Source of the DNA: a virus
Reading direction: 5' to 3' (one strand)
DNA: 19,283 bases
UHGV virus genome: UHGV-1601451
The notes beneath the pieces are model-generated. The model had not been told where the DNA came from and searched no databases. It saw nothing but the letters and a program-made list of their open reading frames with translations. The position numbers and the translations under genes were made by a program. Positions 400-13,259 of this stretch are shown here, piece by piece (the first letter of the stretch is position 1; each line of letters opens with the position of its first letter).

Positions 400-486
400 T
401 GGTATGAGCCTGAAAATTTATTTTTAAAGAATTATTAAATACTGCCGATGTTAATAATTACACTAAAAAAAAGGAGCATGAAATTT

Positions 487-984
487 ATGTTAAATTTAGA
501 CGAAATGTGCAGCGCATTAAGAAAACAATACTCTATAACGGCTGGTCAAGATGGTGAGAAATATGCTAGTAGATGGCTGGAAAAATCCAAGTGGAAATTT
601 GAACATGTTGAGCAAGGAATAAATACCTTATCTGCAAACTTGAAATCGTATGGGAGGAAACGCCCCGATTTTATTATTGACATTGACGAATCCTCTTATA
701 TTCTTTTAGATGCGAAGTATCACTCAACAGATGGGTGTACCTCCTTTACACTTACTGATTGTGAAATAGGAAAATATAGAGCACTTCAGCAATTCTTAAA
801 AAATGTGTATAGTGATTGTACTTTCGAAGTAGTCTTTATGGTGTTTCCGAAAGAAAAAAATGGTGACGAATTTACATTTGTGAGTCTAGATGAGTTTGAT
901 AAAGGAGAGTGTACGACTCTAGCATCAAAAGATGCAACGAAAATTAGTCTACTCTATCGAGATGACTTATGGTTTAAAAGTTGA
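487..984 (+). CDS. small PD-(D/E)xK nuclease-like protein (restriction-endonuclease / NERD-like core), AT-rich cargo gene
   Basis: ORF in track as 448..984. Start at 487 preferred because AGGAG (472-476) lies 10 nt upstream; the ATG at 478 is only 1 nt from the SD and 448 has no SD. Translation has an acidic helix (GEKYASRWLEK) followed by RPDFIIDID...SSYILLDAKYH, i.e. a D ... D-x-K arrangement with nuclease-like spacing. Codon composition is much more AT-rich than the flanking phage genes. Opposite strand to the late operon. Confidence 0.7.
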   Translation: MLNLDEMCSALRKQYSITAGQDGEKYASRWLEKSKWKFEHVEQGINTLSANLKSYGRKRPDFIIDIDESSYILLDAKYHSTDGCTSFTLTDCEIGKYRALQQFLKNVYSDCTFEVVFMVFPKEKNGDEFTFVSLDEFDKGECTTLASKDATKISLLYRDDLWFKS

Positions 985-1326: not shown

Positions 1327-1881
1327 TTATATAACCCTGGCTGGAAACCTCTTATACAAAGTTGACACACCAACATCATAGATAATAGCCACCTTCTGGC
1401 GAGGAACGCCTGATGCAATTAATCGCCCGGCCTGCGCCCATTGTTCTGGTGTAAGTTTGAGACGACGTCCACCAATTCGTCCCTGTGCGCGAGCAGCTTC
1501 CAGTCCAGCTTTTGTTCGTTCAACAATCAGTTCTCGTTCCATTTCAGCCAGGGCACCCATCACATGAAAGAAAAAACGCCCCATCGGTGTGCTGGTATCA
1601 ATAGCATCCGTCAGGCTGCGAAAATTAACGCCACGTTCGCGCAACTCCTCAACCAGAATGACCAGATGCCGCATACTACGCCCCAGCCGATCCAGCTTCC
1701 AGACAACCAGAGTGTCACCTGCCGATAATGTCCTGAGCAGTTTTTTCAGTCCCGGCCTTTCGGACTTTGTGCCGCTTATCTTGTCTTCAAAAATCAGCTC
1801 GCATCCTGCACAGTTCAGCGCATTACGTTGTAGATCTGTGTTCTGGTCATTTGTTGACACACGTACATAGCCAATAAGCAT
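1327..1881 (-). CDS. pin: DNA invertase, serine recombinase of the Gin/Pin/Hin/Cin family
   Basis: Translation from the ATG at 1881, MLIGYVRVSTNDQNTDLQRNAL...VVWKLDRLGRSM...MGRFFFHVMGALAEMERELIVERT...GRIGGR, matches the resolvase/invertase catalytic domain (active-site Ser in RVSTNDQ) plus a C-terminal HTH. AGGGAG SD 7 nt upstream of 1881. The 12-codon extension in the track ORF (to 1917) is not supported. Confidence 0.93.
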   Translation of the reverse strand: MLIGYVRVSTNDQNTDLQRNALNCAGCELIFEDKISGTKSERPGLKKLLRTLSAGDTLVVWKLDRLGRSMRHLVILVEELRERGVNFRSLTDAIDTSTPMGRFFFHVMGALAEMERELIVERTKAGLEAARAQGRIGGRRLKLTPEQWAQAGRLIASGVPRQKVAIIYDVGVSTLYKRFPARVI

Positions 1882-1935
1882 GGTAGATCTCCCTGACAAA
1901 AGCAGGAATGATGCCATTTGCTCGTTATTTCTGCA

Positions 1936-1961
1936 TTTTCATAAACGTTGGTTTGGGAGAA
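1936..1961. repeat. gix/hix-like 26-bp recombination crossover site (right site), between invertase start and invertible segment
   Basis: TTTTCATAAACG-TT-GGTTTGGGAGAA: two 12-bp half-sites around a 2-bp core. The inner half-site is a perfect inverted repeat of the inner half-site at 3797-3808. The core TT is the reverse complement of the AA core at 3809-3810. Confidence 0.8.
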
Positions 1962-2300
1962 GCGGCCAAATTGCCTGCGATTAGTGGCTCTTTATCATCA
2001 TCTGGCTGGATAAAAATCCCTGTTATAGAGGGGAAGTCTTTTATTATCCAATGGGGAAGAATCGGACCTTCTGATAGTAAAACTGGTGTTGCAACAGGAA
2101 GTTATCCTATTGCTTTTCCAAATTCTGCATTTATGGCATTTATTGCTGAAAAAACCGCAGTATCCACAGGCCCAATAGGTATTAATTCCTGGGGAGTATC
2201 CGAACTAACAAAAACAGAATTAAAGGCCATTTGTGCTGCAAGGACTATATCAACTTCAGCCGCAACTGAAACAGGTGATTTTCTGGTACTGGGATATTGA
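1950..2300 (+). CDS. alternative tail-fibre C-terminal variable part (Sv'-like), no own start; expressed only after inversion as a fusion to the constant N-terminal part
   Basis: The frame is open through the right crossover site. GGT TTG GGA GAA (GLGE) at 1950-1961 is in frame with the downstream ORF ...AAKLPAISGSL...IIQWGRIG...LVLGY, stop at 2298-2300. The same GLGE codons occur in the minus-strand fibre gene at the left site, so inversion gives an in-frame fusion. Confidence 0.75.
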   Translation, partial: GLGEAAKLPAISGSLSSSGWIKIPVIEGKSFIIQWGRIGPSDSKTGVATGSYPIAFPNSAFMAFIAEKTAVSTGPIGINSWGVSELTKTELKAICAARTISTSAATETGDFLVLGY

Positions 2301-2320
2301 GCTTCCATAAGGATTATAAA

Positions 2321-2770
2321 ATGTCGAGCATAATATACTACAGCTCTATAAATAATGCATTTTACCCTGAGCATTTGAAACAAGAATATATTAAATCTAA
2401 TTCTTTTCCAGCAGATGCAAAACCCGTTAAATATTCTGTTTTCGAAGAATTTGCACTTAAACCAGCACCAGAAGGAAAATACAGGTGCGTTGGTGAAGAT
2501 GGAATGCCATCATGGGCAGATATTCCACCACCAACACATGAGGAACAGATTGCCGCAGCCGAATTGAAAAAGCAGCAATTGATTAACCAGGTCAACGAAT
2601 ACATGAACAGTAAACAATGGCCCGGTAAAGCGGCTATTGGTCGTCTGAAAGGTGAGGAACTGGCGCAATATAATCTGTGGCTGGATTACCTGGACGCACT
2701 GGAAATGGTCGATACTTCCAGTGCTCCAGATATTGAATGGCCTACGCCTCCGGCAGTTCAGGCCAGATGA
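2321..2770 (+). CDS. tail fibre assembly protein (Tfa/U'-like), cognate to the alternative fibre tip
   Basis: MSSIIYYSSINNAFYPEH...DTSSAPDIEWPTPPA has a typical Tfa N-terminus and the conserved C-terminal D-T-S-x-A-P-D-x-x-W-P motif. AAGGA SD 7 nt upstream of the ATG at 2321. The track ORF begins at a TTG at 2297. Confidence 0.8.
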   Translation: MSSIIYYSSINNAFYPEHLKQEYIKSNSFPADAKPVKYSVFEEFALKPAPEGKYRCVGEDGMPSWADIPPPTHEEQIAAAELKKQQLINQVNEYMNSKQWPGKAAIGRLKGEELAQYNLWLDYLDALEMVDTSSAPDIEWPTPPAVQAR

Positions 2771-3344
2771 CATCTGGCGCGGTGCTGGTATCAGTTGCCG
2801 TCACCGCGTCAATGTAATCCAGCACAGCGTTAAGGCGGGTTGTTTCTGTCTGCGTCAGTTTACGTCCGGCCTGCAATTTCAGTTGAATCAGACTGATGGA
2901 AGCCATAGCAGCATCAATCAGATACTGGCGCTGTGCTTCTGCCGCTTCTACTGCGGCGCTATGCTGTGCCTCAGTATCCGTCACCCATTTCTCACCATCC
3001 CATTTATCGTATGGCGTTAATGGGGCGATAGTGGTTGTATTATCAGGGTAATCACCCGGAGCTGTGATTTCTTTTGATTCTCCTGTTTCGGTGCTAAAGA
3101 CGATTTCACCGCGATGGTCTGGCACATATTCCCATGAGTTAAAATCTGCAGAACGGCAGATTGCATAACCAGCTTTGTATGCGCCTGGAGCATCTAAACA
3201 GGAACATGCCGGAATGCCGACACCAACGGCAAGATATTCAGTTGATATGGAAATATATTCCCGTGTTTCACCATCATAATTATAGACAGTAATATTCCCC
3301 GCCTTCGTGGCAATAAACTCGCTATTTAATACAGCGCTATCCAT
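2742..3344 (-). CDS. tail fibre assembly protein (Tfa/U-like), cognate to the currently expressed fibre tip
   Basis: 200 aa ending ...LDYIDAVTATDTSTAPDVIWPELPEA, the conserved Tfa C-terminal motif. Start ATG overlaps the fibre stop (TAATG). Its 3' end overlaps the convergent Tfa' gene by 29 nt. Confidence 0.85.
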   Translation of the reverse strand: MDSAVLNSEFIATKAGNITVYNYDGETREYISISTEYLAVGVGIPACSCLDAPGAYKAGYAICRSADFNSWEYVPDHRGEIVFSTETGESKEITAPGDYPDNTTTIAPLTPYDKWDGEKWVTDTEAQHSAAVEAAEAQRQYLIDAAMASISLIQLKLQAGRKLTQTETTRLNAVLDYIDAVTATDTSTAPDVIWPELPEA

Positions 3345-4099
3345 TATGCAGCCCTCACAATGTAGTTAAATGCGATGTTGCGTGGACGGACACCGAAATA
3401 AGAAGTAACACCATTCATTGTCAAATTTCCAGAGCCAAAAGCGGTAAAACCAGAACCAGCATTAACTGCCGAATCCGCGTTTCTGACAAAGTTTTTGGGA
3501 GGTGAACCGGAGACACCAGCCGAAATATCATCAGCATTACCGCCATTGCCGTGGTGGTTAGTTATCTTTGTTTCCGCCTGCGCCGTCAACAAACCTCGTC
3601 CAGAGTCAACCCCGCGCCCGTCATCCCAGCCGCGAATAAACTCACCACGTAAATCAGGCAATTTATTTGTCGGATAAGCCTTTGCCAGTTCCGGGTATTC
3701 TTCAGCAGAAAAAGCCGCGCCGTTGCATTTCAGCCAGCCTGTTGGCGGAGTGGCGGAAGGCCATGGAACAGGGACACCAACGGGTAATGCAGAGCCTTCT
3801 CCCAAACCAAGGTTTTCGAGAGCCGTTTTCACCGTGCCATCCGATTTGATATCACCAAACGGATTCTTGCGGCTTAACAGCAGCGCACGAAGCGCGGTAA
3901 GCAGCTGGTCGTGCCGCGCCTTCTCCAGGCTGGCACCGGATGCCTCCACAACACTGCAAAGTTCCTCCTGCAACATGTCAAAGTAGTCATCATCCAGATC
4001 GGTGGCAGGTGTGCCGTTCTGGGGGTTACCACGGGTAAAACCGTTCTTACCCGCGCCGAACTTATCCTTCTGCGCGGTTTTCGTATCTATACGATGCAT
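3344..4099 (-). CDS. tail fibre protein: constant N-terminal part fused to variable tip carrying a phage tail-collar domain
   Basis: 251 aa. GGAG SD 6 nt upstream of the ATG at 4099. The tip downstream of the crossover site has PVGVPVPWP...[24 protein letters not shown]...[12 protein letters not shown], matching the tail-collar fibre domain signature. Crossover site lies inside the gene at 3797-3822. Confidence 0.9.
3797..3822. repeat. gix/hix-like 26-bp recombination crossover site (left site), inside the tail-fibre gene
   Basis: TTCTCCCAAACC-AA-GGTTTTCGAGAG. Near-palindromic 12-bp half-sites resembling the TTnnnnnAAACC half-site of Gin/Hin systems. 15 bp are identical to the inverted right site. 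Confidence 0.8.
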
Positions 4100-4102
4100 G
4101 GA

Positions 4103-4687
4103 TTACTCCGGATATTTAAAAATTACGTAGGTATGCGACGGGCAGAGTTTGTTAAGCACACACTCGACAACGGTGTCGCCCCAGATACGCAGTGCGGAAT
4201 CACAGGGATCGCCACATGTCATCCAGGTGGTGTTGGTGGCGGCTGGCATGTTGACCTGCCAGTAATACCGCCATTCCGGCGCATTCACCGCGTCAGTACA
4301 GGCCGATGAGCAGGTGAACGTGCTTTTGTCGTATCGCGTGATGGTGGCGTCTGGTCTGCCCAGGGCAGCAAGCTGTGCAAGGTAAAAATCCTCATTGATG
4401 CCGCCCGCCAGGTTAACCTTCGCATCCAGTCGTTGCTGACGCTGGCGAAGGGTCTGTGTCCCTGCGGGAATACATTCATCCGGCAGGCCGCACAGACGCT
4501 CCCAGCGATTTATCAGTTCGGTGGTGGTGCGCGGATCCAGCTCCCGCATCAGGGCATCCGCACGCTGATGAACGCGGGTTAATGACGGTGCCGCACCGGC
4601 AATCGCCGGATCGCTGGCTGACCACGCCGGACCGGGGGGCAACAGTGCCGACAACAGATGGATGTAATCATCGTTTGTCACGTCCAT
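4103..4687 (-). CDS. tail/baseplate protein, YmfQ / Mu gp48-like (DUF2313 family)
   Basis: 194 aa, immediately upstream of the tail fibre and downstream of the baseplate J-like gene, as in Mu and e14. Recognised by position and overall resemblance. Confidence 0.7.
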
Positions 4688-5736
4688 GAAATCGTCCCCA
4701 GTACCGCCAGTTCATTTTTTGCAATGGAGATATTGTCCGCCGGTGCAAGCAACTGATGGCTGTATTCCCCGTTCGCACCGGAAATCGCCTCACTGATACG
4801 CGACACCTTCAGTTCACCCTGCGGATAACCATCACGCAGCAGGAACGAACGCAACTCGGCGGTGATGGCAGCCCGTATTTCCGGTGTGTCCGGCGTCACG
4901 CGGATATGAAAATCCACTTTATGCGCCACCGGCCTGAATACATACAAATCAGAGCCTGCCACCGGGGCCAGTGGCTCAATGTGTTGTCTTGCCGCCGTTT
5001 CCGTTGATTCTTCCGGAATGGGATTAATCAGGTCACTGCTGGCAATCATCACACCGACAGTCCCCGTTCCCATCCAGTGGCGGTATGTCCATGCACGGGT
5101 AATGCCTGGCACTTCTTTAGCCCAGACAACATAGTCCCCGTCAGCCCCGCCCTGAGGCGTCCAGTAATACCGCTCAATGACGCGGGCGCGCCACGTTTCC
5201 AGCTCTTCAGTATCAAATCCACCTGTCAGAGTGTCTGCCACGCCGGAAGACGGCAGACCATTCACCGGCGTGACCAGGATTAATGACGTACCGTCGTCAG
5301 CATTACCGACCGCTCCTGCACTTGAGCAGGCGATCGGCACGCGCAGGACACCACCGGAGCTGGTTGCATCGGCAGTTGCCGTGTACTGAACCAGGTCATC
5401 GCGCTGAATAACACTCCCGGCGGTCACCTTCAGGCCATCGCTGACACCTTCCCAGCGCATATACCCGCTGGCAGCCGTGGCCCCCTTGCGCGGACACCGT
5501 TTCATCGCAGCATGTCGCGCCAGCCAGGACTCATCGCACAGGTCAGGCAGCATGTTCATTGCCAGATAATCGATGTAACCGTAAACCGTATGCAGCGCCG
5601 CCGCATACACCTTTGCCCGCACGTCTTCATCCATGCGCCGGAGCGTATCGCTGACGTCCAGCCTGGCGAATAAATCGTTACGGAGCATACTGATATTTTC
5701 TGCCAGCGTCGGGCGCTGAAATTCACTGTCCGCCAT
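4678..5736 (-). CDS. baseplate J-like protein (Mu gp47-like)
   Basis: 352 aa in the conserved position between the W-like and gp48-like genes. Small overlap with both neighbours, typical of a tightly packed tail operon. Confidence 0.8.
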
Positions 5737-6151
5737 GCGTTATCGCACTCCACAGATCATCAAAAGAAATCATTACCGGTCCGTCACGACGCCAGAGAGT
5801 GATACTGTTACCCAGTTCATTAATCCCGGTGCGGCGGATATCCAGATCAATACGGGACACCACACCGTCATCAATCATCCATTGCAGGCATTCGCGGATA
5901 TACCCCCTTACCGTCTGCACCAGCTGATTGGTCAGTTTGCCGCGCTGAAGCAGCCACAGCCGGGAGCCGTAACGGTCATTCTGTACCGCAGGCCAGGTAT
6001 CCCCCCACCATCCCATCGGGACGTCGGCATTGTCATCAGGCTCCGCCCGCCGCCAGGTGAACAGGGAAATCACCACGGCGCGGGTCAGCGGATCCAGCGG
6101 TGCGCTGGCGCAGGTGCGTTTACCGTTCACCGTCAGCCACAGTTCCATCAT
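5723..6151 (-). CDS. baseplate protein, Mu gp46 / GP46-family (W-like)
   Basis: 142 aa, positioned between the spike and J-like genes. Overlapping starts and stops with neighbours. Confidence 0.7.
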   Translation of the reverse strand: MMELWLTVNGKRTCASAPLDPLTRAVVISLFTWRRAEPDDNADVPMGWWGDTWPAVQNDRYGSRLWLLQRGKLTNQLVQTVRGYIRECLQWMIDDGVVSRIDLDIRRTGINELGNSITLWRRDGPVMISFDDLWSAITHGGQ

Positions 6152-6696
6152 GCCTCCATCGCTTTATCCGGTTTGTCGGTGTTACTGCCCTGACCGTTCT
6201 CTCTGTGACGATGGCCGTTATAGGCAAGCCGCATCGCTGACATGGTGGTGCCGCCGGAGTCGCACAGGTCTTTCACCTGTCCGGTCACTTCCAGGTCCAT
6301 TTCAAAACGTGCTCTGGGCGCATTGCGAAACGTGATCGTTTTACCTGCACCGTCCACCACGATCCCCTCCCGGGTCAGCGTCACAGACTGCCCCTGATCG
6401 TCATAGACAGCCACCTCCCCCGTCTGCAGCCCTTTCAGGCGGTAGCGCCGGTCCGACACCGTAACAACCACCGCATGAGAACGGTCGCCATCCGGAAACA
6501 ACACCACCGCTTCCGCACCGCTGTTTGCCCTTGCGGTAAAACCGTAGGGTTCAAGATGTTCAACCCCGGCTTTGGGTTCACCGGCAATCAGGGACACATC
6601 CACGGTCTGACATTTCGTGGCGGCACTGATGCTTTTCACCACTGCCCGCCCAATCAGGCCGAGAAGTTGTCGCTGCATGGCTTCAATCGTCCTCAT
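6148..6696 (-). CDS. baseplate assembly protein V-like (central spike), Mu gp45-like
   Basis: 182 aa, N-terminal OB-fold-like region followed by a Gly-rich C-terminus. Start overlaps the hub gene stop. Confidence 0.75.
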   Translation of the reverse strand: MRTIEAMQRQLLGLIGRAVVKSISAATKCQTVDVSLIAGEPKAGVEHLEPYGFTARANSGAEAVVLFPDGDRSHAVVVTVSDRRYRLKGLQTGEVAVYDDQGQSVTLTREGIVVDGAGKTITFRNAPRARFEMDLEVTGQVKDLCDSGGTTMSAMRLAYNGHRHRENGQGSNTDKPDKAMEA

Positions 6697-7775
6697 CAGA
6701 ACGGGTCCTCCTGTACTCTGGCTTTTTTCTTTTTCCGCGCGCCGGGGTCTTCAGGTTCAGGCAGATAAGCATCAGGCGGGCCGACACGGATTTCCGTCAG
6801 GGTGCCGTTCTGGTCCTGAGTAAACGTGACTTCCGAAACAAGCAGTTCGGTATTGTCAAAACCACAGACCGGATCAAAGACAATCACCCGCTGGTTGGGT
6901 TGCCACAGCGTACCGTTACCCTGTCGCCAGCCCTGCACCACATAGGTGGTTTCATCCGTCCGCGCCGCCCGTTGCCGGGCTTCAAAGTCAGCACGCGCAA
7001 TACAGCCTGCCCCCGTAGCCTGCCCTGTCTGCCTGATATACATCGGACGGTAACGGGCAATAAATGCGTCCTCTGTGCGGGCCCGCAGCGCGGTGGTGGT
7101 GGCCTCACCGAAATCATCGTCGTTTCCGGCACGCTGCCCCGCCACCTGGTAAACAGAAAACCGCTCCCGGATACTCTTCTCCGTATCGCAGGAAAGGATG
7201 TTTTCCCCAAGTACCAGCGCGGTATGTGCCCGCGTTGAGCCAATACCACCAATCACCAGCCTGCCGTGCGGGTCGTCGTAAGCCAGCGCCTGCTGCTGAC
7301 CGAGTATTTTGTTGATCACCTCGATCACCGTTTCACCGTGATCAGGCTGGACATCAGGAATAACACCCGACGGCGCACCGCTGTTCACCACCTCAATGCC
7401 GAAAGGCGCAGCAAGCGCCTGCGCAATCTGTACCAGCGATCGTCCGTTAAACTGTGTCGGTTCGGCTGCACAGTCAATCAGGTCAGCGGTCAGACTACGT
7501 CCGGCAATACCGGTGCTGACCGAACGGGCATCGTAACGAACGGGCGTCGCCTCCACCCAGCCGGTGATCACCAGCTCATCACCAATCAGCACCTCCACTT
7601 TTGAACCGTTTTTAATGCGCGACTGAAGCGTGGTAATACCCTCATCTCCCGGCCACTGGCGGGTGATCTCCACACTGAAATCCCGCGCCAGTCGTTCAAC
7701 ACCGGCACCGATGCGCACCGATGTCCAGCCATTCCACTCCCGGCCATTTACCCGTAGCGTGACGTTATCGTTCAT
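6696..7775 (-). CDS. baseplate hub protein, phage late control D-like (Mu gp44/P-like)
   Basis: 359 aa starting MNDNVTLRVNGREWNGWTSVRIG..., typical of the GPD family. ATGA overlap with the upstream DNA circulation gene. Confidence 0.85.
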   Translation of the reverse strand: MNDNVTLRVNGREWNGWTSVRIGAGVERLARDFSVEITRQWPGDEGITTLQSRIKNGSKVEVLIGDELVITGWVEATPVRYDARSVSTGIAGRSLTADLIDCAAEPTQFNGRSLVQIAQALAAPFGIEVVNSGAPSGVIPDVQPDHGETVIEVINKILGQQQALAYDDPHGRLVIGGIGSTRAHTALVLGENILSCDTEKSIRERFSVYQVAGQRAGNDDDFGEATTTALRARTEDAFIARYRPMYIRQTGQATGAGCIARADFEARQRAARTDETTYVVQGWRQGNGTLWQPNQRVIVFDPVCGFDNTELLVSEVTFTQDQNGTLTEIRVGPPDAYLPEPEDPGARKKKKARVQEDPF

Positions 7776-9100
7776 TGCACTGGCACCTTCAGAGGGATCA
7801 CCGGCACAAAGCCGGGATGCGTAATGGCATTACGCCGGATAATGTCCGCGTCACGCGCCGCGTTATCAAACCAGGTCGCCGCCAGCACCAGCGCGGGTAA
7901 AACCTCATCCGGCGTGCGCTGAATGATCCGTGCAGACTGTTCAAGGCGCGTGTTGATATCCGCATTCAGATCTGCTTTCACCCGGCGCAGCGCCAGAAAC
8001 AGCGCATCACTGGTTGTTCGGGACAACTCCTTATCAATTGCCGTATTCAGTGTGTCGCGAATGTCAGTCAGTTCTTCCCACGTCGGCAGGTCAACCGTGC
8101 TTTTCACCGCCGGTGCATTGTTCAGTGCCGGATGCGTGACGGAGGGCCAGCCAGTGCTCTGCGCGGGTGTTGTTGCCTGCCCCACTGCGGCATTCTGCAT
8201 CACCGCGGAAGTTGTTGGCGCAGGCAATCGGGTGACGGCATACGCCGCTTCGCTGATTGCGGTCGTACGAAGGGTGCTGGCAACCACGTTACGCTGCTGC
8301 GTCGCCGTGGCGGTGGTTTTACTGTCCGTTTTCCAGACGCCGCGCGGTTGCAGATCGCTGCCGAGGCTGACACCGGAAAGCGTTTTGATCATGGTGACCA
8401 GGTCGCTGGCGTTACCATAAAGGCGTTTCCCGGTACGCCACATTTTCTGCACCTGCTCAACGAAATTTTTGCCTGACGATGGCGGCGGCAGAAGTACCGA
8501 GATATCCCCCTGCAACAGCCTGGCGGCATCCGATACGGCAGAATCCACCACTTTCATCGCATCAGAAACATACCCAAGCATTGTGCTGGCATTACCGACG
8601 ACGTCGTTCTGCACAAAATCTGCCACGCCATCGATACTGAAACCACTGAAGCTGTCACTGATGCAGTCATCCAGTGCAGAACAGGATGACATCAGCGTCT
8701 GCGCCGTCGCCGCACCTGAAGTGGGGTAAGAGAGTTCTCCCGCTTCGACAAACTTCAGGTCAAAGCGGACAATACGCCCTTCACTCTTCGATGTGCTGAC
8801 CCGAACTTCCCCGTCAACACAGACTTTCAGCTCACCGTAAGTCGGATGGACAAGTGTGCCGGGACCGGGTTTATTCAGCGCGTCAATCAGGCGATCGCGC
8901 TGGTCAAAGCAGTCATCTCCCACCACATAAGCTGTGATGGACGGGCGGAAAGTGATTTTCCCCAGGTCTTCGGTATAGGGTTTGTCGCGGTTCGGGTATT
9001 CGTGCGTTTCCACACGACGACCGGTTCCCGCACTTTCTTCTTCAACCTTAAACGGCACACCGCGAAATGACGCGTCCTGAAGTCTGTCTTTCCACGTCAT
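7772..9100 (-). CDS. DNA circulation protein (Mu N-like)
   Basis: Contains MTWKDRLQDASFRGVPF... near the N-terminus. Start placed at the ATG at 9100 (GGAG SD 5 nt upstream); the track ORF begins at 9142 with no SD, and its first 14 codons overlap a terminator-like hairpin. Confidence 0.8.
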   Translation of the reverse strand: MTWKDRLQDASFRGVPFKVEEESAGTGRRVETHEYPNRDKPYTEDLGKITFRPSITAYVVGDDCFDQRDRLIDALNKPGPGTLVHPTYGELKVCVDGEVRVSTSKSEGRIVRFDLKFVEAGELSYPTSGAATAQTLMSSCSALDDCISDSFSGFSIDGVADFVQNDVVGNASTMLGYVSDAMKVVDSAVSDAARLLQGDISVLLPPPSSGKNFVEQVQKMWRTGKRLYGNASDLVTMIKTLSGVSLGSDLQPRGVWKTDSKTTATATQQRNVVASTLRTTAISEAAYAVTRLPAPTTSAVMQNAAVGQATTPAQSTGWPSVTHPALNNAPAVKSTVDLPTWEELTDIRDTLNTAIDKELSRTTSDALFLALRRVKADLNADINTRLEQSARIIQRTPDEVLPALVLAATWFDNAARDADIIRRNAITHPGFVPVIPLKVPVQ

Positions 9101-9115
9101 ATAAACTCCGTACAT

Positions 9116-9137
9116 AAAAAATCCCACCGGAGTGGGA
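9116..9137 (-). terminator. short hairpin followed by T6 (intrinsic-terminator-like) between tape measure stop and DNA circulation start
   Basis: Minus strand reads TCCCAC-TCCG-GTGGGA followed by TTTTTT. Stem is only 6 bp, so at most a weak or partial terminator. Confidence 0.3.
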
Positions 9138-9160
9138 CTCATTAACAGATTAATTTTTCA

Positions 9161-10996
9161 TTACCTGCCAAAGCGCGTATAGCCAACATCATGGCTGACA
9201 TCAAAACCGCTGGATCGCGTTTCCATAACCCGCATACCCGGAGGCGAATTCACAAAAGAGACCTTGATCTCACCATCAACTTTTGGCGCAGAAGCTTTGT
9301 TAATCATGAAGGGATTCGGGCCTGTGGCATCGGAGGCGTTGTTTGACTGAGCCGGATCTACCGCCTGATAAGGTGTGTATCCCCGTGCCGGTATTCCCGT
9401 CCCATAAGCATCATAAGCACCCGCGCCCCACTGCGCAGAGTTAATGACATCGACCGTGTCACCGGAACTGTCGGTAAACCACTCAATAATTGGCTTCAGC
9501 TTGTCCCACATATCCTGAAACCACTTAACAACCGGTCCCCAGTTATTGATTACCATCCCCAGCGGCGACCAGGCAAAAACCTTCTTCAGAAGTTCCCAGC
9601 CAGCCTCAAAATAAGGACCAATGGTTTCCCAGAGCTTCTTGAAATAAGGTCCGACAACATCCCAGTTAGTGATAATTAATCCCGCAGCCAGGGCTATCGC
9701 CGTCGCAATCATTCCAATCGGCGTCATCGACATGATCCTGCTGACAATACTGATGGCACCGCCAACGCCCATCAATCCCAGTTTCAGAATCGCAAAACCG
9801 GCAGCAAGCCCGACGACGCCGCGAATAACCCGGGGATTTTCATCCGCAAACTTCGTGAATTTTTCCCCTAACTCCCCCAGCCATTGCGTGATATTTTTGG
9901 CGTCACCAGAAAATGCGCCGCCAATAGCCGCAAGGCCGTTAGTTGCGGTCCCCGTCATTGCCTCCCACAGGTTGGACAGCGTACCAAGCTGGGCCTGAAC
10001 ACGTTTATTCAGGCTGGCCTGTTTATTCATCTTCTGCTGGATCTGATCGTAACCATCTTTTCCTTTATCGATCAGAGCATTGACCACCTGAAGGGTTTCA
10101 GCATCATCACCAAATATTGCCTTAAGTACACCGGTTCGCTTAACGTCGGTCAGTTTTCGCAGCTTTGCCAGTTGCCTGAACATGTTATCAAGACCGCCAA
10201 AACTCCCTTTGCCGTCAGTAAAATCGAGCTGCACTCCGAGTTTCTGGCGGGCCATGACTTTATTGACGTCCCTGATTTTCTTAACGCTTAATCCGGACTG
10301 GATAACTTTTCGCAGGGCATTACCTGCCGACTCCCCGTTCATCCCCATCTGATCCATCATGACGCTGATAGGGGCAAGGCTCTGTGCAGCCTGAAGACCG
10401 TCCTTATTCACCATCTTCAGAACAGAACTGGTTTTAGTGAAGAAGGACAACATGTTGGTATCGTCAACGCCCAGATAAAACGCCTTCTGGATAGTGTCGA
10501 ACAGCCCCATCATGTCTTCTGACGCCGTTCCGGTAGCATCCTGCATCTTTGCAGCAAACTCAGCAGCCGCTTCTGGTGTTTTTTTCAGTTGTACCGCAAG
10601 ATAAGCTGTCGCTTTACCCACACCACCCAGAATGTTTTCTGCCGGGATCCCCTGACGCACCAGCATCTGCATCATGTTCTGGAAATCAGCCGTTGTACCG
10701 GGTAGCTGGTTACCCAGGCCAATAGCCAGTTTATTGATGTCCTGAAAGCGCTTTCCAACCTCGCCGTTCGCATCCATCATGGCGACTTTCAGCCCGGTGG
10801 CGGCGTTTTCCTGATCGGCATAAGATTTCAGGGAAAGCGTCAGACCCGCTGCCAGTCCGCCACCAAGCGCCAGCCCACCCTGTGACGCTTCTTCCGCCTG
10901 GCGTTTAAATCCCCGGATTTTCTTTTGCATTTTCGACAGCGCCGGAGAAAGCCTGTCGACACCGGTGATCAACGCCTTAAGCTCAAATTCAGCCAT
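9161..10996 (-). CDS. tail tape measure protein
   Basis: 611 aa, helical and Ala/Gly/Leu-rich with a Trp-rich C-terminal region. Located directly after the frameshifted chaperone pair and before the baseplate genes. Confidence 0.85.
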   Translation of the reverse strand: MAEFELKALITGVDRLSPALSKMQKKIRGFKRQAEEASQGGLALGGGLAAGLTLSLKSYADQENAATGLKVAMMDANGEVGKRFQDINKLAIGLGNQLPGTTADFQNMMQMLVRQGIPAENILGGVGKATAYLAVQLKKTPEAAAEFAAKMQDATGTASEDMMGLFDTIQKAFYLGVDDTNMLSFFTKTSSVLKMVNKDGLQAAQSLAPISVMMDQMGMNGESAGNALRKVIQSGLSVKKIRDVNKVMARQKLGVQLDFTDGKGSFGGLDNMFRQLAKLRKLTDVKRTGVLKAIFGDDAETLQVVNALIDKGKDGYDQIQQKMNKQASLNKRVQAQLGTLSNLWEAMTGTATNGLAAIGGAFSGDAKNITQWLGELGEKFTKFADENPRVIRGVVGLAAGFAILKLGLMGVGGAISIVSRIMSMTPIGMIATAIALAAGLIITNWDVVGPYFKKLWETIGPYFEAGWELLKKVFAWSPLGMVINNWGPVVKWFQDMWDKLKPIIEWFTDSSGDTVDVINSAQWGAGAYDAYGTGIPARGYTPYQAVDPAQSNNASDATGPNPFMINKASAPKVDGEIKVSFVNSPPGMRVMETRSSGFDVSHDVGYTRFGR

Positions 10997-11407
10997 GTGT
11001 GCGTTTCTCCTGCTCTATCCTGTTTGCCTGACTGACCAGCAAGGGAATTTCACTGATCGGCATATTCAGCAATTCGAAGGGATTAATGCGCCAGTAACTG
11101 GCGCAGTCAAAGAAGCGATCAGTGAGGTATTCAGCCGTCAGGCCTGGAGGAAAAAACCAGCCACAAGCCACGCCGCTGCATTCAGGTCTGCCGGAGACAT
11201 CTGGTCGACAGAGCTTTGCGGCACTTTCGCCAGCCGCACAATGTATTTCGACACCACATGCGCCAGAAGTCTGACGGACTCATCCTGATTCATCTGGTAA
11301 GGATACCCCAGCTCGCGGACATCCTTCCCGGTGGGTTCATCAAACTCCAGTACGGAGAGTGTCTCGCCATGAGCGATAATCGGTTTCTTTAACTCAAGCT
11401 CTTTCAT
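10989..11407 (-). CDS. tail assembly chaperone, long form produced by -1 programmed ribosomal frameshift
   Basis: Slippery heptamer T-TTT-TTC on the minus strand (plus coords 11150-11156). The -1 frame continues as FFPPGLTAEYLTDRFFDCASYW...EKRTHG and stops at 10989, overlapping the tape measure start. Same architecture as the lambda G/GT and P2 E/E' chaperone pairs. Confidence 0.7.
11138..11407 (-). CDS. tail assembly chaperone, short (in-frame) form
   Basis: 89 aa ending ...AAWLVAGFFLQA, directly upstream of the tape measure. Contains the slippery heptamer near its 3' end. Confidence 0.8.
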   Translation of the reverse strand: MKELELKKPIIAHGETLSVLEFDEPTGKDVRELGYPYQMNQDESVRLLAHVVSKYIVRLAKVPQSSVDQMSPADLNAAAWLVAGFFLQA

Positions 11408-11763
11408 TACTGGTAATCCCCTTCTTCACCGTGGAACTCAAGATCAACCGTGCCTTCTTCGGCATTATGGTTCGCTTCGCCGTGCACCCAGGCTGACGAC
11501 AATACATAGACCTGACCGTTCGCCAGCTCAGCAGTGATGGTCATCTCATCAGACGAGGTGATTTTGCTCACAGGAAAATTCTTCGGCACCTTGAAGGTCC
11601 CTTTAACATAGGGCGCACGGTGAGTTTCCTTGCGGTCCACTGAACCGTCCAGGCCGATGATGTCATCATTGACCGTCCTGTTCATGGGCACCTCAATGCC
11701 GCCGGTCAGCGATAGCTGCTGACCGTCAATTTTGAAATAACAGGTTCCCCCGATACGGGCCAT
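11407..11763 (-). CDS. tail tube protein (Mu-type)
   Basis: 118 aa, immediately downstream of the sheath gene with overlapping stop and start. Confidence 0.8.
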   Translation of the reverse strand: MARIGGTCYFKIDGQQLSLTGGIEVPMNRTVNDDIIGLDGSVDRKETHRAPYVKGTFKVPKNFPVSKITSSDEMTITAELANGQVYVLSSAWVHGEANHNAEEGTVDLEFHGEEGDYQ

Positions 11764-13259
11764 TATGCAGACTCCTCTGAATACTGAAGACGGAACTGGT
11801 TAACCACGGCAAAGACACGCAACTGGTTAACATAGTCAGGCGGGAACAGCGTGTTCAGGCGGTTCGGATCGCTGGCATCACGCTCCACAACCAGGTACTG
11901 CTTGAACAGTTCGTAGTTTTCCACGATCCCCGCACGCTCGAGCTGACGGTAGGTTGCCAGCAGTTCCCCTTTGATCACTGCCGGGGTGACAATCGCCTGA
12001 CCGGGACCAAAGCGGGTACCGTCACTGGCAAGCTTGTGACGCCCGTACTTACTGGTAATGACGGATTTCAGTTTGCGCAGTACATACGCGCTGGTATGCA
12101 ACGTCTCGCTGTCGAGGTAGCTGTTATCCGCAACCCCGTAAGCGTTTTTCCTGTACGTGGTGACATCACGCTGAATGCGCAGTACCCCGCTTTCGACATA
12201 CGCCGTTGCCACGCCATGAGACAGCAGGGTCTGTTGTTCGGTCATCGTGAACCGTTTCCCCTTCGGCGCAGGCAGCATACCCACCAGCTCACCGGTCTGC
12301 GTGGGACGTGCCGGATCGTTGCGGATAAACACCGCTGCGCGGGCGGTACGGCTTGCCGCCAGCTCATCGGCAGGCGTCTGGGTGTCTTTTTCGTACCCCG
12401 CCAGGGTAATGTGCTGCTGGTTAAACTGGTCACCTGCGGTCACCAGTTCTGACAGCGTGCCGATCTTTGCCGTATACACATGGCCATACAGCTGACGCGC
12501 ATAGCTCCAGCGACCGCTGGTATCGTTCATCTCGGTCACCAGCGTGTTAAGGGAGGCCGTGTCGTTGAACGGCAGACCGATATAATCAAACGGCTCATCC
12601 GCCATTGCAGCCACCGCGCCGGTGAGAACCGGAGCGCCCGTTCCGGCGGTCCCCGCCGCCACGGCAATCTGTACGCCCGCAGGCAGCACTTCTCCCCCAC
12701 CGAAGCCGTAGTAATTGAGGCTGACAGGAATTTCATTCCCGCAAAGCCCCTTATGACGCGCGGTCAGTGTGACCACGCCAGCCGAAGATGAGGCCGTAAA
12801 CGGCAGGGCCGGAACGGCATTGATGGCATCCTGGATACTGCTGGCAATCGTCGCGACGTTATCGCCGTTGGTCACCGGTGCCTGCACGCGGGTACGTCCC
12901 ACATAAACATTCACCGTGCCGGTTTCGGTTGCCGCGCCGGTCACCGTCAGCGTAACTGTTGCCGCCGCGCCCGTGGATTCAGGAACGGCAATCACATACA
13001 GTTCACCAAACGGGTCGGTCTGGCGATAAGCCTCGACCATACGCGCCAGCTGACTTCCCGCACCACAAATCTGGCGTGCATAGTCTGCCGATGGCATCAG
13101 CACCAGACTGTTGGCAACAATCTCTGCACCGTTATTGGCATGACCAATCAGCAGCGATGCCCCGCTGTCCTGTGCAGTATTCGCCGCCTGGTTATCCATT
13201 TCCGCATAAAACAGCGGAACCAGCGTATTCGACGGAATGGTGTTAAAGCTTATCGTCAT
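11763..13259 (-). CDS. contractile tail sheath protein (Mu-type)
   Basis: 498 aa starting MTISFNTIPSNTLVPLFYAEMDN..., characteristic of Mu-family sheath proteins. Followed by the tube gene. Confidence 0.9.
   Translation of the reverse strand: MTISFNTIPSNTLVPLFYAEMDNQAANTAQDSGASLLIGHANNGAEIVANSLVLMPSADYARQICGAGSQLARMVEAYRQTDPFGELYVIAVPESTGAAATVTLTVTGAATETGTVNVYVGRTRVQAPVTNGDNVATIASSIQDAINAVPALPFTASSSAGVVTLTARHKGLCGNEIPVSLNYYGFGGGEVLPAGVQIAVAAGTAGTGAPVLTGAVAAMADEPFDYIGLPFNDTASLNTLVTEMNDTSGRWSYARQLYGHVYTAKIGTLSELVTAGDQFNQQHITLAGYEKDTQTPADELAASRTARAAVFIRNDPARPTQTGELVGMLPAPKGKRFTMTEQQTLLSHGVATAYVESGVLRIQRDVTTYRKNAYGVADNSYLDSETLHTSAYVLRKLKSVITSKYGRHKLASDGTRFGPGQAIVTPAVIKGELLATYRQLERAGIVENYELFKQYLVVERDASDPNRLNTLFPPDYVNQLRVFAVVNQFRLQYSEESA

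Follow-up and report, generated by a model that had tools for sequence, protein, structure and literature searches.

The G segment of bacteriophage Mu (S/U and S'/U', inverted by Gin) and the C segment of P1 (inverted by Cin) are switches in which the crossover falls within a fibre gene and convergent cassettes, each made up of a fibre tip and a tfa gene, confer alternative host ranges. For the principle of the Mu/P1 switch, PMC9881135 cites Grundy & Howe 1984. Here we analyze a 19,283-nucleotide (nt) stretch of the virus genome UHGV-1601451, which in its full length is called the window throughout this text. Its left 4.1 kb very probably constitute an invertible tail-fibre switch of the e14 P-segment type, with a Pin/Gin-type invertase, in a prophage with a Mu-type baseplate. 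The best explanation of the locus as a whole, to which we give a probability of roughly 0.85, is an ordinary switch of host range of the Pin type, in which the module of the off state is rare and was acquired by recombination.

Comparison with described systems

The locus falls in a known class, the e14/Mu-type switch of Escherichia coli prophages. With the P segment of the K-12 e14 element (stfP-tfaP / tfaE-stfE, with the invertase PinE) it shares the order of the genes, the published crossover core TTGGTTTGGGAGAAG and the pairing of a gp53-like tip with a collar tip (PMC12529663). The invertase is 96% identical to K-12 PinE in amino acid (aa) sequence and its gene 93% identical in nucleotide sequence (blastn), the constant part of the fibre gene is 96% identical at the nucleotide level to the 5' part of K-12 stfP and to ymfQ, and the TfaE-like protein is 90% identical to K-12 TfaE. 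The two loci differ in that the MG1655 reference is in the opposite orientation, in that K-12 carries another allele of the gp53-like tip and of the N-terminal domain of its Tfa (the N-terminal 65 residues of the Tfa encoded here being unrelated), and in the distal insert of the collar tip (3389-3605). Moreover, e14 is cryptic and has mcrA as its cargo, whereas the prophage in the window appears complete, with head and tail genes, and has another cargo gene in that place.

The Mu G and P1 C segments have in common with the window a serine invertase, a constant fibre N-terminus and convergent pairs of tip and tfa. Mu S (PDB 5yvq/8ju3) is only weakly similar to the constant part (E ~0.01), the Mu fibre is ~500 aa long as against 251 or 213 aa here, and the tip families are unlike those solved for Mu. 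In P2-like prophages such as Escherichia phage 500465-2 (Peduoviridae), an invertase lies beside a silent gp53-like tip and its tfa, opposite an expressed tfa and fibre, but unlike in the window the constant part belongs to an H-type fibre of ~500 aa with PF12571 and the baseplate is of the P2 type. Switches of this kind, the combination of these two domain types and the mosaicism of such fibre tips are already known; the silent allele found here is annotated in RefSeq but uncharacterised.

The invertible segment and evidence for its inversion

The features of the switch are as follows:

1327..1881, minus strand: PinE-like serine DNA invertase, 184 aa counted from the ATG at 1881 (frame open to 1917)
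1936..1961: invertase-proximal 26-base-pair (bp) crossover site (outer half 1936-1947, central TT 1948-1949, inner half 1950-1961)
1908..2300, plus strand: open reading frame (ORF) at the unexpressed position, encoding 130 aa that start with the 17-aa leader MMPFARYFCIFINVGLGE and continue as the silent tip
1962..2300, plus strand: silent alternative fibre tip, 112 aa and stop codon, predicted gp53-like_C / R-pyocin foot-type domain
1962..2463, plus strand: rare AT-rich allele-specific module, comprising the silent tip and the N-terminal domain of Tfa'
2321..2770, plus strand: tfa', tail-fibre assembly protein of the silent cassette, 149 aa from the ATG at 2321 (ORF open from TTG 2297)
2742..3344, minus strand: TfaE-like protein of the expressed cassette, 200 aa, convergent with tfa' and overlapping it by 29 nt (2742-2770)
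3344..3796, minus strand: expressed variable fibre tip, with a collar domain, a hypervariable insert (~3389-3605) and a conserved C-terminal strand
3797..3822: fibre-side 26-bp crossover site (inner half 3797-3808, central dinucleotide 3809-3810, outer half 3811-3822)
3797..4099, minus strand: constant N-terminal part of the fibre gene, aa 1-101
3344-4099, minus strand: complete fibre gene, 251 aa
4103-5736, minus strand: genes for a Mu gp48-like protein and baseplate J, followed by the remaining tail and head module

The invertase shows the catalytic Resolvase domain (PF00239, 1e-51) and a C-terminal helix-turn-helix (HTH_7, PF02796, 1e-12) in Pfam searches, and is 100% identical to the PinE of the E. 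coli strain UPEC_U013. Given the 93% nucleotide identity to K-12 pinE noted above, a Fis-dependent recombinational enhancer may be present in the 5' part of its gene. A 20-nt inverted repeat with 95% complementarity (1943-1962 versus 3796-3815) forms the core of two 26-bp sites in inverted orientation, whose inner halves (GGTTTGGGAGAA) are identical and each of which has TT at its centre; the boundaries of the invertase-proximal site were derived from the repeat, the sequence itself and a comparison of the joints with UPEC_U013 and K-12. The fibre-side site falls in the codons for ENLGLGE, within the fibre ORF, and codons for LGLGE span both joints in frame. Inversion would exchange the last 150 residues of the fibre for the 112 residues encoded at 1962-2297, with predicted fibre lengths of 251 aa in the present state and 213 aa in the inverted one. 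The two cassettes of tip and tfa are convergent, each variable part being followed by a tfa gene of its own.

The alternative state is found in nature. UPEC_U013 has the same prophage, and its locus (L005) matches the window at 100% over 1-1962 and 3796-6000 and carries 1943-3815 flipped at 99.9% identity, its gp53-like tip belonging to the 213-aa fibre. The joints in that strain are the reciprocal products of the exchange: each outer half-site is still in its place, while the inner halves have traded positions, with the central TT as the point of exchange. Four near-identical natural proteins of 213 aa, in which the constant part is followed by the silent tip, were recovered at 97-99% identity (P0039-P0042), and this form also exists as WP_157276978.

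One record concerns the segment as a separate molecule: NZ_CP148330.1 (L017), a 1878-bp RefSeq 'plasmid' of E. coli Z1323HEC0475, is the invertible segment in circularised form, with the gp53-like tip, both tfa genes and the collar tip. Most likely this circle was created in the assembly of reads from a population containing both orientations, which would make it an indirect sign of active inversion.

The two tips belong to different predicted fold families

The earlier note, made from the letters of the window and their translations, had proposed that the two alternative tips are of different types, one carrying a tail-collar-type domain and the other a different C-terminal fibre domain. Domain searches bear this out, the motifs that it quoted being present. 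The expressed tip matches Collar (PF07484) with 57.7 bits (1.2e-15; cut-off 24) and the silent tip Gp53-like_C (PF21882) with 37.9 bits (cut-off 24.9), with no Pfam match of the silent tip to Collar or of the expressed tip to Gp53-like_C. A BLASTP comparison of the two tips returned nothing beyond the common GLGE joint.

Against the PDB, the expressed tip retrieves the tip of T4 gp37 (2xgf, 1e-16), inclusive of the terminal NIAFNYIVR strand, and 9cuy (1e-15). The two thus share a collar domain and a final NIAFNYIVR(A/L)A strand, while the long His-x-His iron-binding needle of gp37 is replaced here by ~70 variable residues that separate the collar from the C-terminal strand; these hold a single HH with no repeats of the His-x-His type, and a second stretch reported by HMMER is insignificant. 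The insert at 3389-3605 finds no match in K-12 or in the related loci L006-L009 and varies among relatives (alignment A2, of fibres with the collar tip), also where the segments are otherwise alike. It is probably the receptor-contacting part of the collar tip. As an observation on its placement, this block sits between an invariant collar domain and an invariant C-terminal strand. An AlphaFold monomer of the expressed fibre had a mean predicted local distance difference test (pLDDT) score of 44.9, as expected for an interwoven trimer; it was unusable and left out of the fold search.

The silent tip required a more sensitive approach, as phmmer searches of the PDB with the silent tip and with Tfa' found nothing and only the profile search with the tip succeeded. 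A profile of 25 fibres with gp53-like tips (alignment A1) matched AP22 gp53 (4mtm, 6.7e-7) and the feet of R1/R2 pyocin fibres (6cxb at 1.3e-6, with 6cxb/6cl5 in the range 1e-6 to 2e-5). In the AlphaFold model of the alternative fibre the tip has pLDDT values mostly of 76-95, falling to 60-69 in two 10-residue blocks, and the best five PDB matches of this tip model in Foldseek are 6ct8, 6cl6, 6cxb, 6cl5 and 4mtm, all with probability 1.00 and E-values from 1.6e-7 to 1e-5. By profile and predicted fold, the silent tip is accordingly placed in the lectin-fold family of pyocin-foot-type domains, with the same C-terminal foot domain as the R-pyocin foot and AP22 gp53 (6cl5, 6cl6, 6ct8, 6cxb, 4mtm). 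It differs from these feet in its sequence (only ~18-22% identity), in the very short shaft that bears it and in its position in an invertible cassette. The R-pyocin foot is a lectin-fold domain, core lipopolysaccharide (LPS) is the route of adsorption of R pyocins, and R-pyocin fibres also require a Tfa-type chaperone (PMC6363177). By analogy with these homologs, the foot-type tip probably binds a carbohydrate or LPS ligand (PMC6363177).

Because the Pfam and PDB matches of the two tips differ and the tips show no similarity to each other beyond the joint, we assign them to different fold families. Unlike tip folds have already been reported for K-12 StfE2/StfP (PMC12529663). Given such unrelated folds, it is reasonable to suppose, as the earlier note did, that the two states would differ in receptor specificity.

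The Tfa proteins and the limits of the exchanged unit

Both Tfa proteins contain the Caudo_TAP domain (PF02413), Tfa' with an E-value of 1.9e-35 and the TfaE-like protein with 1.5e-32, and the scores of 122.3 and 112.9 bits (cut-off 22.1) each cover nearly the full length of the profile. Moreover, their last 80 residues are 34% identical (BLASTP, E = 7e-12). The proposal that they share nothing but a D-T-S-x-A-P-D-x-x-W-P motif consequently does not hold, as a whole C-terminal domain is common to them. An 18-nt inverted repeat (89%) at 2680-2697 and 2806-2823, in the centre of the segment, arises from these homologous C-terminal coding regions. Translation of tfa' most likely starts at the ATG at 2321, which has AAGGA 7 nt upstream and is the start used by RefSeq for the identical gene; the same protein, WP_023351511, is encoded in loci L002-L005.

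Tfa' and K-12 TfaP can be aligned only in their C-terminal 92-98 residues, where they are 59% identical. A variable N-terminal domain of Tfa binds the fibre and a conserved helical C-terminal domain trimerises (PMC9608196, summarising North et al. 2019), so that the variable N-terminal domain would be the tip-specific part. Relatives of the Tfa' N-terminal domain (46-56% aa identity) adjoin gp53-like_C tips in the P2-like phage 500465-2 and in the podovirus APSE-2. In the latter (L011, 1914-2942), the tail spike P36 has both an N-terminus of the P22 Head_binding type and a gp53-like_C foot, and the Tfa encoded behind it resembles Tfa' in its N-terminal domain. This arrangement of the spike indicates that the same receptor-binding module is used across tail morphotypes.

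Modular exchange and spread of the silent module

The distribution of these sequences points to modular exchange at three nested levels, which are well supported: the whole segment, the tip together with the Tfa N-terminal domain, and the hypervariable insert of the collar tip. At the second level, K-12 e14 aligns with the window at 89-96% (blastn) in the invertase, at 2603-3388, at 3606-3815 and in the constant part, with no blastn match to 1963-2602. Among 5426 complete E. coli genomes, just 12 contain DNA specific to the silent cassette, in each case with an identity of ≥98.6%, and similarity to hundreds of other tfa genes begins only at ~2464-2511. Likewise, a DNA search of a phage collection with 1963-2602 gave matches confined to the conserved 3' part of tfa. 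With the silent tip as sole query, a word-indexed search of proteins yielded near-identical copies only, and an exhaustive HMMER search recovered just 30 representatives at E ≤ 1e-3, the nearest being 57% identical; the names of the clusters to which these relatives belong (Mixta, uncultured Caudoviricetes) do not identify a donor. With the tip as query, tblastn gave matches of 32-36% in Cronobacter phage JK004 and Erwinia phage ENT90, in parts of these genomes that carry no annotation.

Both types of tip are fused at NLGLGE to at least five unrelated N-termini (alignments A1 and A2), and for the silent allele at least six different shafts are found on the other side of the crossover site. The backgrounds of the silent tip comprise e14-like, P2-like and other Mu-like prophages and an unrelated myovirus with a Phage_Wedge1-type tail; in other Mu-like tails it stands in the expressed orientation. 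In some P2-like prophages of E. coli the segment and the invertase are present at 91-95% identity, fused to a fibre of ~500 aa. The expressed cassette is equally modular, and the entire invertible segment also moves as a unit. Taken together, the absence of the silent module from K-12 e14, its rarity and its presence on different shafts support the earlier suggestion that it arrived by modular exchange, and the database search that had been proposed for the tip did find it in several kinds of phage.

Exchange of the whole segment is illustrated by the unrelated myovirus (L014), of which 7261-9137 correspond to 1940-3816 of the window at 99.1% identity over the segment only, the flanks being without a match. 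The identity ends within both 26-bp sites; the outer half-sites, the shaft and the baseplate, which is of the Phage_Wedge1 and Sheath_initiator type, are unrelated, and the invertase is 54% identical. These limits of identity, the least ordinary feature of the comparison, hint that whole segments may be exchanged between unrelated prophages at the crossover sites, by invertase-mediated recombination in trans between co-resident elements; we regard this as rather doubtful. If it were true, receptor-binding modules could arrive already paired, and the switch would be the place where such pairs dock.

Loss of constraint offers another way to account for the odd composition and rarity of the silent cassette, which would then be a decaying, non-functional remnant. 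K-12 stfE is indeed annotated as a pseudogene, and invertase or tfa genes are truncated in L002, L004 and L006. Against this, both silent frames are intact in the window and ungapped in every full-length copy (11 of the 12 loci for each gene, one copy of each being cut off at a contig or record end), the two proteins score well above the Pfam thresholds, with a confident model for the tip, and several prophages have the tip in the expressed state, as part of a complete fibre. Decay was rejected in view of the intact copies and those in expressed orientation, and we consider it highly improbable. Counts of synonymous and non-synonymous changes among the 11 full-length copies of each gene were too few to infer selection.

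Base composition

The values of G+C content (GC) and of GC at third codon positions (GC3) are as follows:

2301-2463, 5' part of tfa': GC 0.307
1962-2463, plus strand, silent-specific module: GC 0.376, GC3 0.236
Remainder of the invertible segment: GC 0.489
Silent tip: GC 0.410, GC3 0.24
N part of Tfa': GC 0.343, GC3 0.26
C part of Tfa': GC 0.488, GC3 0.44
C part of the expressed Tfa: GC 0.553, GC3 0.55
N part of the expressed Tfa: GC 0.437, GC3 0.34
Expressed tip: GC 0.508, GC3 0.42
Constant fibre part: GC 0.541, GC3 0.604 (z = -0.5), typical of the tail genes
Invertase: GC 0.494, GC3 0.44
4103-13259, tail genes: GC 0.560, GC3 0.62

As had been noticed from the sequence earlier, the 5' part of tfa' (~2300-2460) is AT-richer than the tail genes (0.307 versus 0.560). 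For GC3, same-length stretches of 16 head and tail genes (mean 0.63, standard deviation ~0.06) served as the reference, relative to which the silent tip has a z-score of -7.2 and the N part of Tfa' one of -5.8, with no reference stretch equally low. Over 502 nt, the sole other equally AT-rich place in the window is the region at 197-1390 around the cargo gene orf178. The silent module also differs from the remainder of the segment (GC 0.376 versus 0.489; Fisher p = 1.6e-5) and, in GC3, from the corresponding expressed module (0.236 versus 0.381; p = 0.002). GC climbs from 0.31 to 0.49 at the point where similarity to other tfa genes begins (~2464). In contrast to these direct comparisons, segmentation by GC under a strict threshold placed one break in the segment, at ~3573 within the expressed tip, which is the strongest single change point, and did not split off 1962-2463.

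The silent cassette is thus the most extreme, but it is not compositionally distinct in the sense of standing alone: the expressed tip, the N part of the expressed Tfa and the invertase also have GC3 values under every reference stretch, as does the cargo gene lie outside the range of the tail genes. The silent module is the extreme of a gradient in which everything beyond the fibre-side site is atypical. Within each cassette the tip and the Tfa N-terminal domain are low and the Tfa C-terminal domain is higher, and the K-12 alleles follow a like pattern (GC3 of 0.35 in the StfP tip and 0.29 in the N part of TfaP). Receptor-binding modules of this sort are low in GC in general, and it is the mosaic evidence, not composition, that proves exchange.

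These patterns bear on whether the low GC is a trace of recent import or, instead, the standing composition of a pool of modules circulating among enterobacterial phages, perhaps owing in part to amino acid content. The latter finds support in the low values of everything distal to the fibre-side site (GC3 of 0.42 and 0.34 in the expressed cassette, 0.44 in the invertase and 0.29 in orf178), in the K-12 alleles, inclusive of mcrA with 0.30, and in the location of the closest distant relatives of the tip in Mixta and uncultured Caudoviricetes, which are no obviously low-GC group. The significantly higher AT content of the silent module relative to the remainder of the segment speaks against it. 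We consider the chances of a pool origin of the low GC to be about even; such an origin is compatible with the mosaic evidence for exchange and does not replace it.

The open frame of the silent position

In its present orientation the silent tip is part of the 130-aa ORF at 1908-2300, which RefSeq names a 'gp53-like domain-containing protein'. Its architectural counterpart is K-12 StfE2, with which it shares the build of a leader followed by a gp53-like domain, the leader being MMPFARYFCIFINVGLGE here and MPFACYFFIFINVGLGE in K-12. StfE2 has been reported to block T2 adsorption after inversion of the P segment and to protect against several phages (PMC12529663). It could hence be proposed that the ORF is made from its own start, acts like StfE2 and has been selected also as a host defence, and both the reported effect of StfE2 on T2 and other phages (PMC12529663) and the orientation of the window, which corresponds to the 'inverted' K-12 state, would accord with this. 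However, a promoter scan of 1700-3500 found 4 promoter-like sites against 4.0 expected by chance from shuffles, which gives no indication that the silent genes are expressed on their own. Further, the AGGA ahead of the ATG at 1908 is just 1 nt away, a poor spacing, and the protein-level experiments on StfE2 relied on over-expression from a plasmid (PMC12529663). By blastn the DNA of the silent tip does not match that of the K-12 tip, and its specificity, if it had one, would therefore not be that of StfE2; PADLOC families gave no match either, and a search of PADLOC and NCBIfam provided no family for the silent ORF, the Tfa proteins or orf178. A role of this kind seems unlikely to us.

The first codons of the 130-aa ORF (1908-1917) lie opposite the frame of the invertase, which stays open for 12 codons ahead of the MLIGYVRV start at 1881 that K-12 and RefSeq use.

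Proposed mechanism and implications

In the host-range switch that we favour, the PinE-like invertase would recombine the two inverted 26-bp sites, and because one of these lies within the fibre gene, the constant 101-residue N-terminus would be joined in frame to either tip. The present state would display a collar/gp37-type tip and the alternative one a gp53-like lectin-fold foot, each with its own Tfa chaperone encoded behind it. The functional and evolutionary unit would be the tip together with the N-terminal, tip-binding domain of Tfa, bordered by the crossover site on one side and by the DNA for the conserved Tfa C-terminal domain on the other, such that recombination at either border could replace the module. 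Under this mechanism the rare, AT-rich silent module at 1962-2463 would have entered by recombination, with one exchange at the crossover site and the other in the conserved 3' region of tfa.

Certain considerations weigh against this explanation. The support for inversion is comparative, coming from related genomes rather than from an experiment on this copy in its host. For the expressed tip, the description of the two tips as structurally unrelated rests on sequence homology to 2xgf and not on a comparison of model with model. The K-12 alleles are low in GC too, and composition alone therefore neither dates the acquisition nor identifies the donor; among the relatives of the tip no low-GC donor lineage was found.

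The findings matter little beyond annotation, but they document in a clean example the make-up and the exchange of host-range modules, and they identify the alternative tip of this prophage family as a predicted lectin domain of the pyocin-foot type. Such knowledge helps in the engineering of phage and tailocin specificity and in reading assemblies in which the segment looks flipped or stands as a separate small contig.

The cargo gene beside the invertase

Downstream of the invertase, in an AT-rich island (~367-1137), the window contains the following gene:

448-984, plus strand: orf178, 178 aa, GC 0.34, GC3 0.29

It occupies the place of mcrA in K-12 e14. Its Pfam search yielded a sub-threshold match to RmuC only (E = 0.003), and its product has a D...(D/E)xK-like stretch, DFIIDIDESSYILLDAKY. 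From these features orf178 may be a nuclease-type cargo or defence gene.

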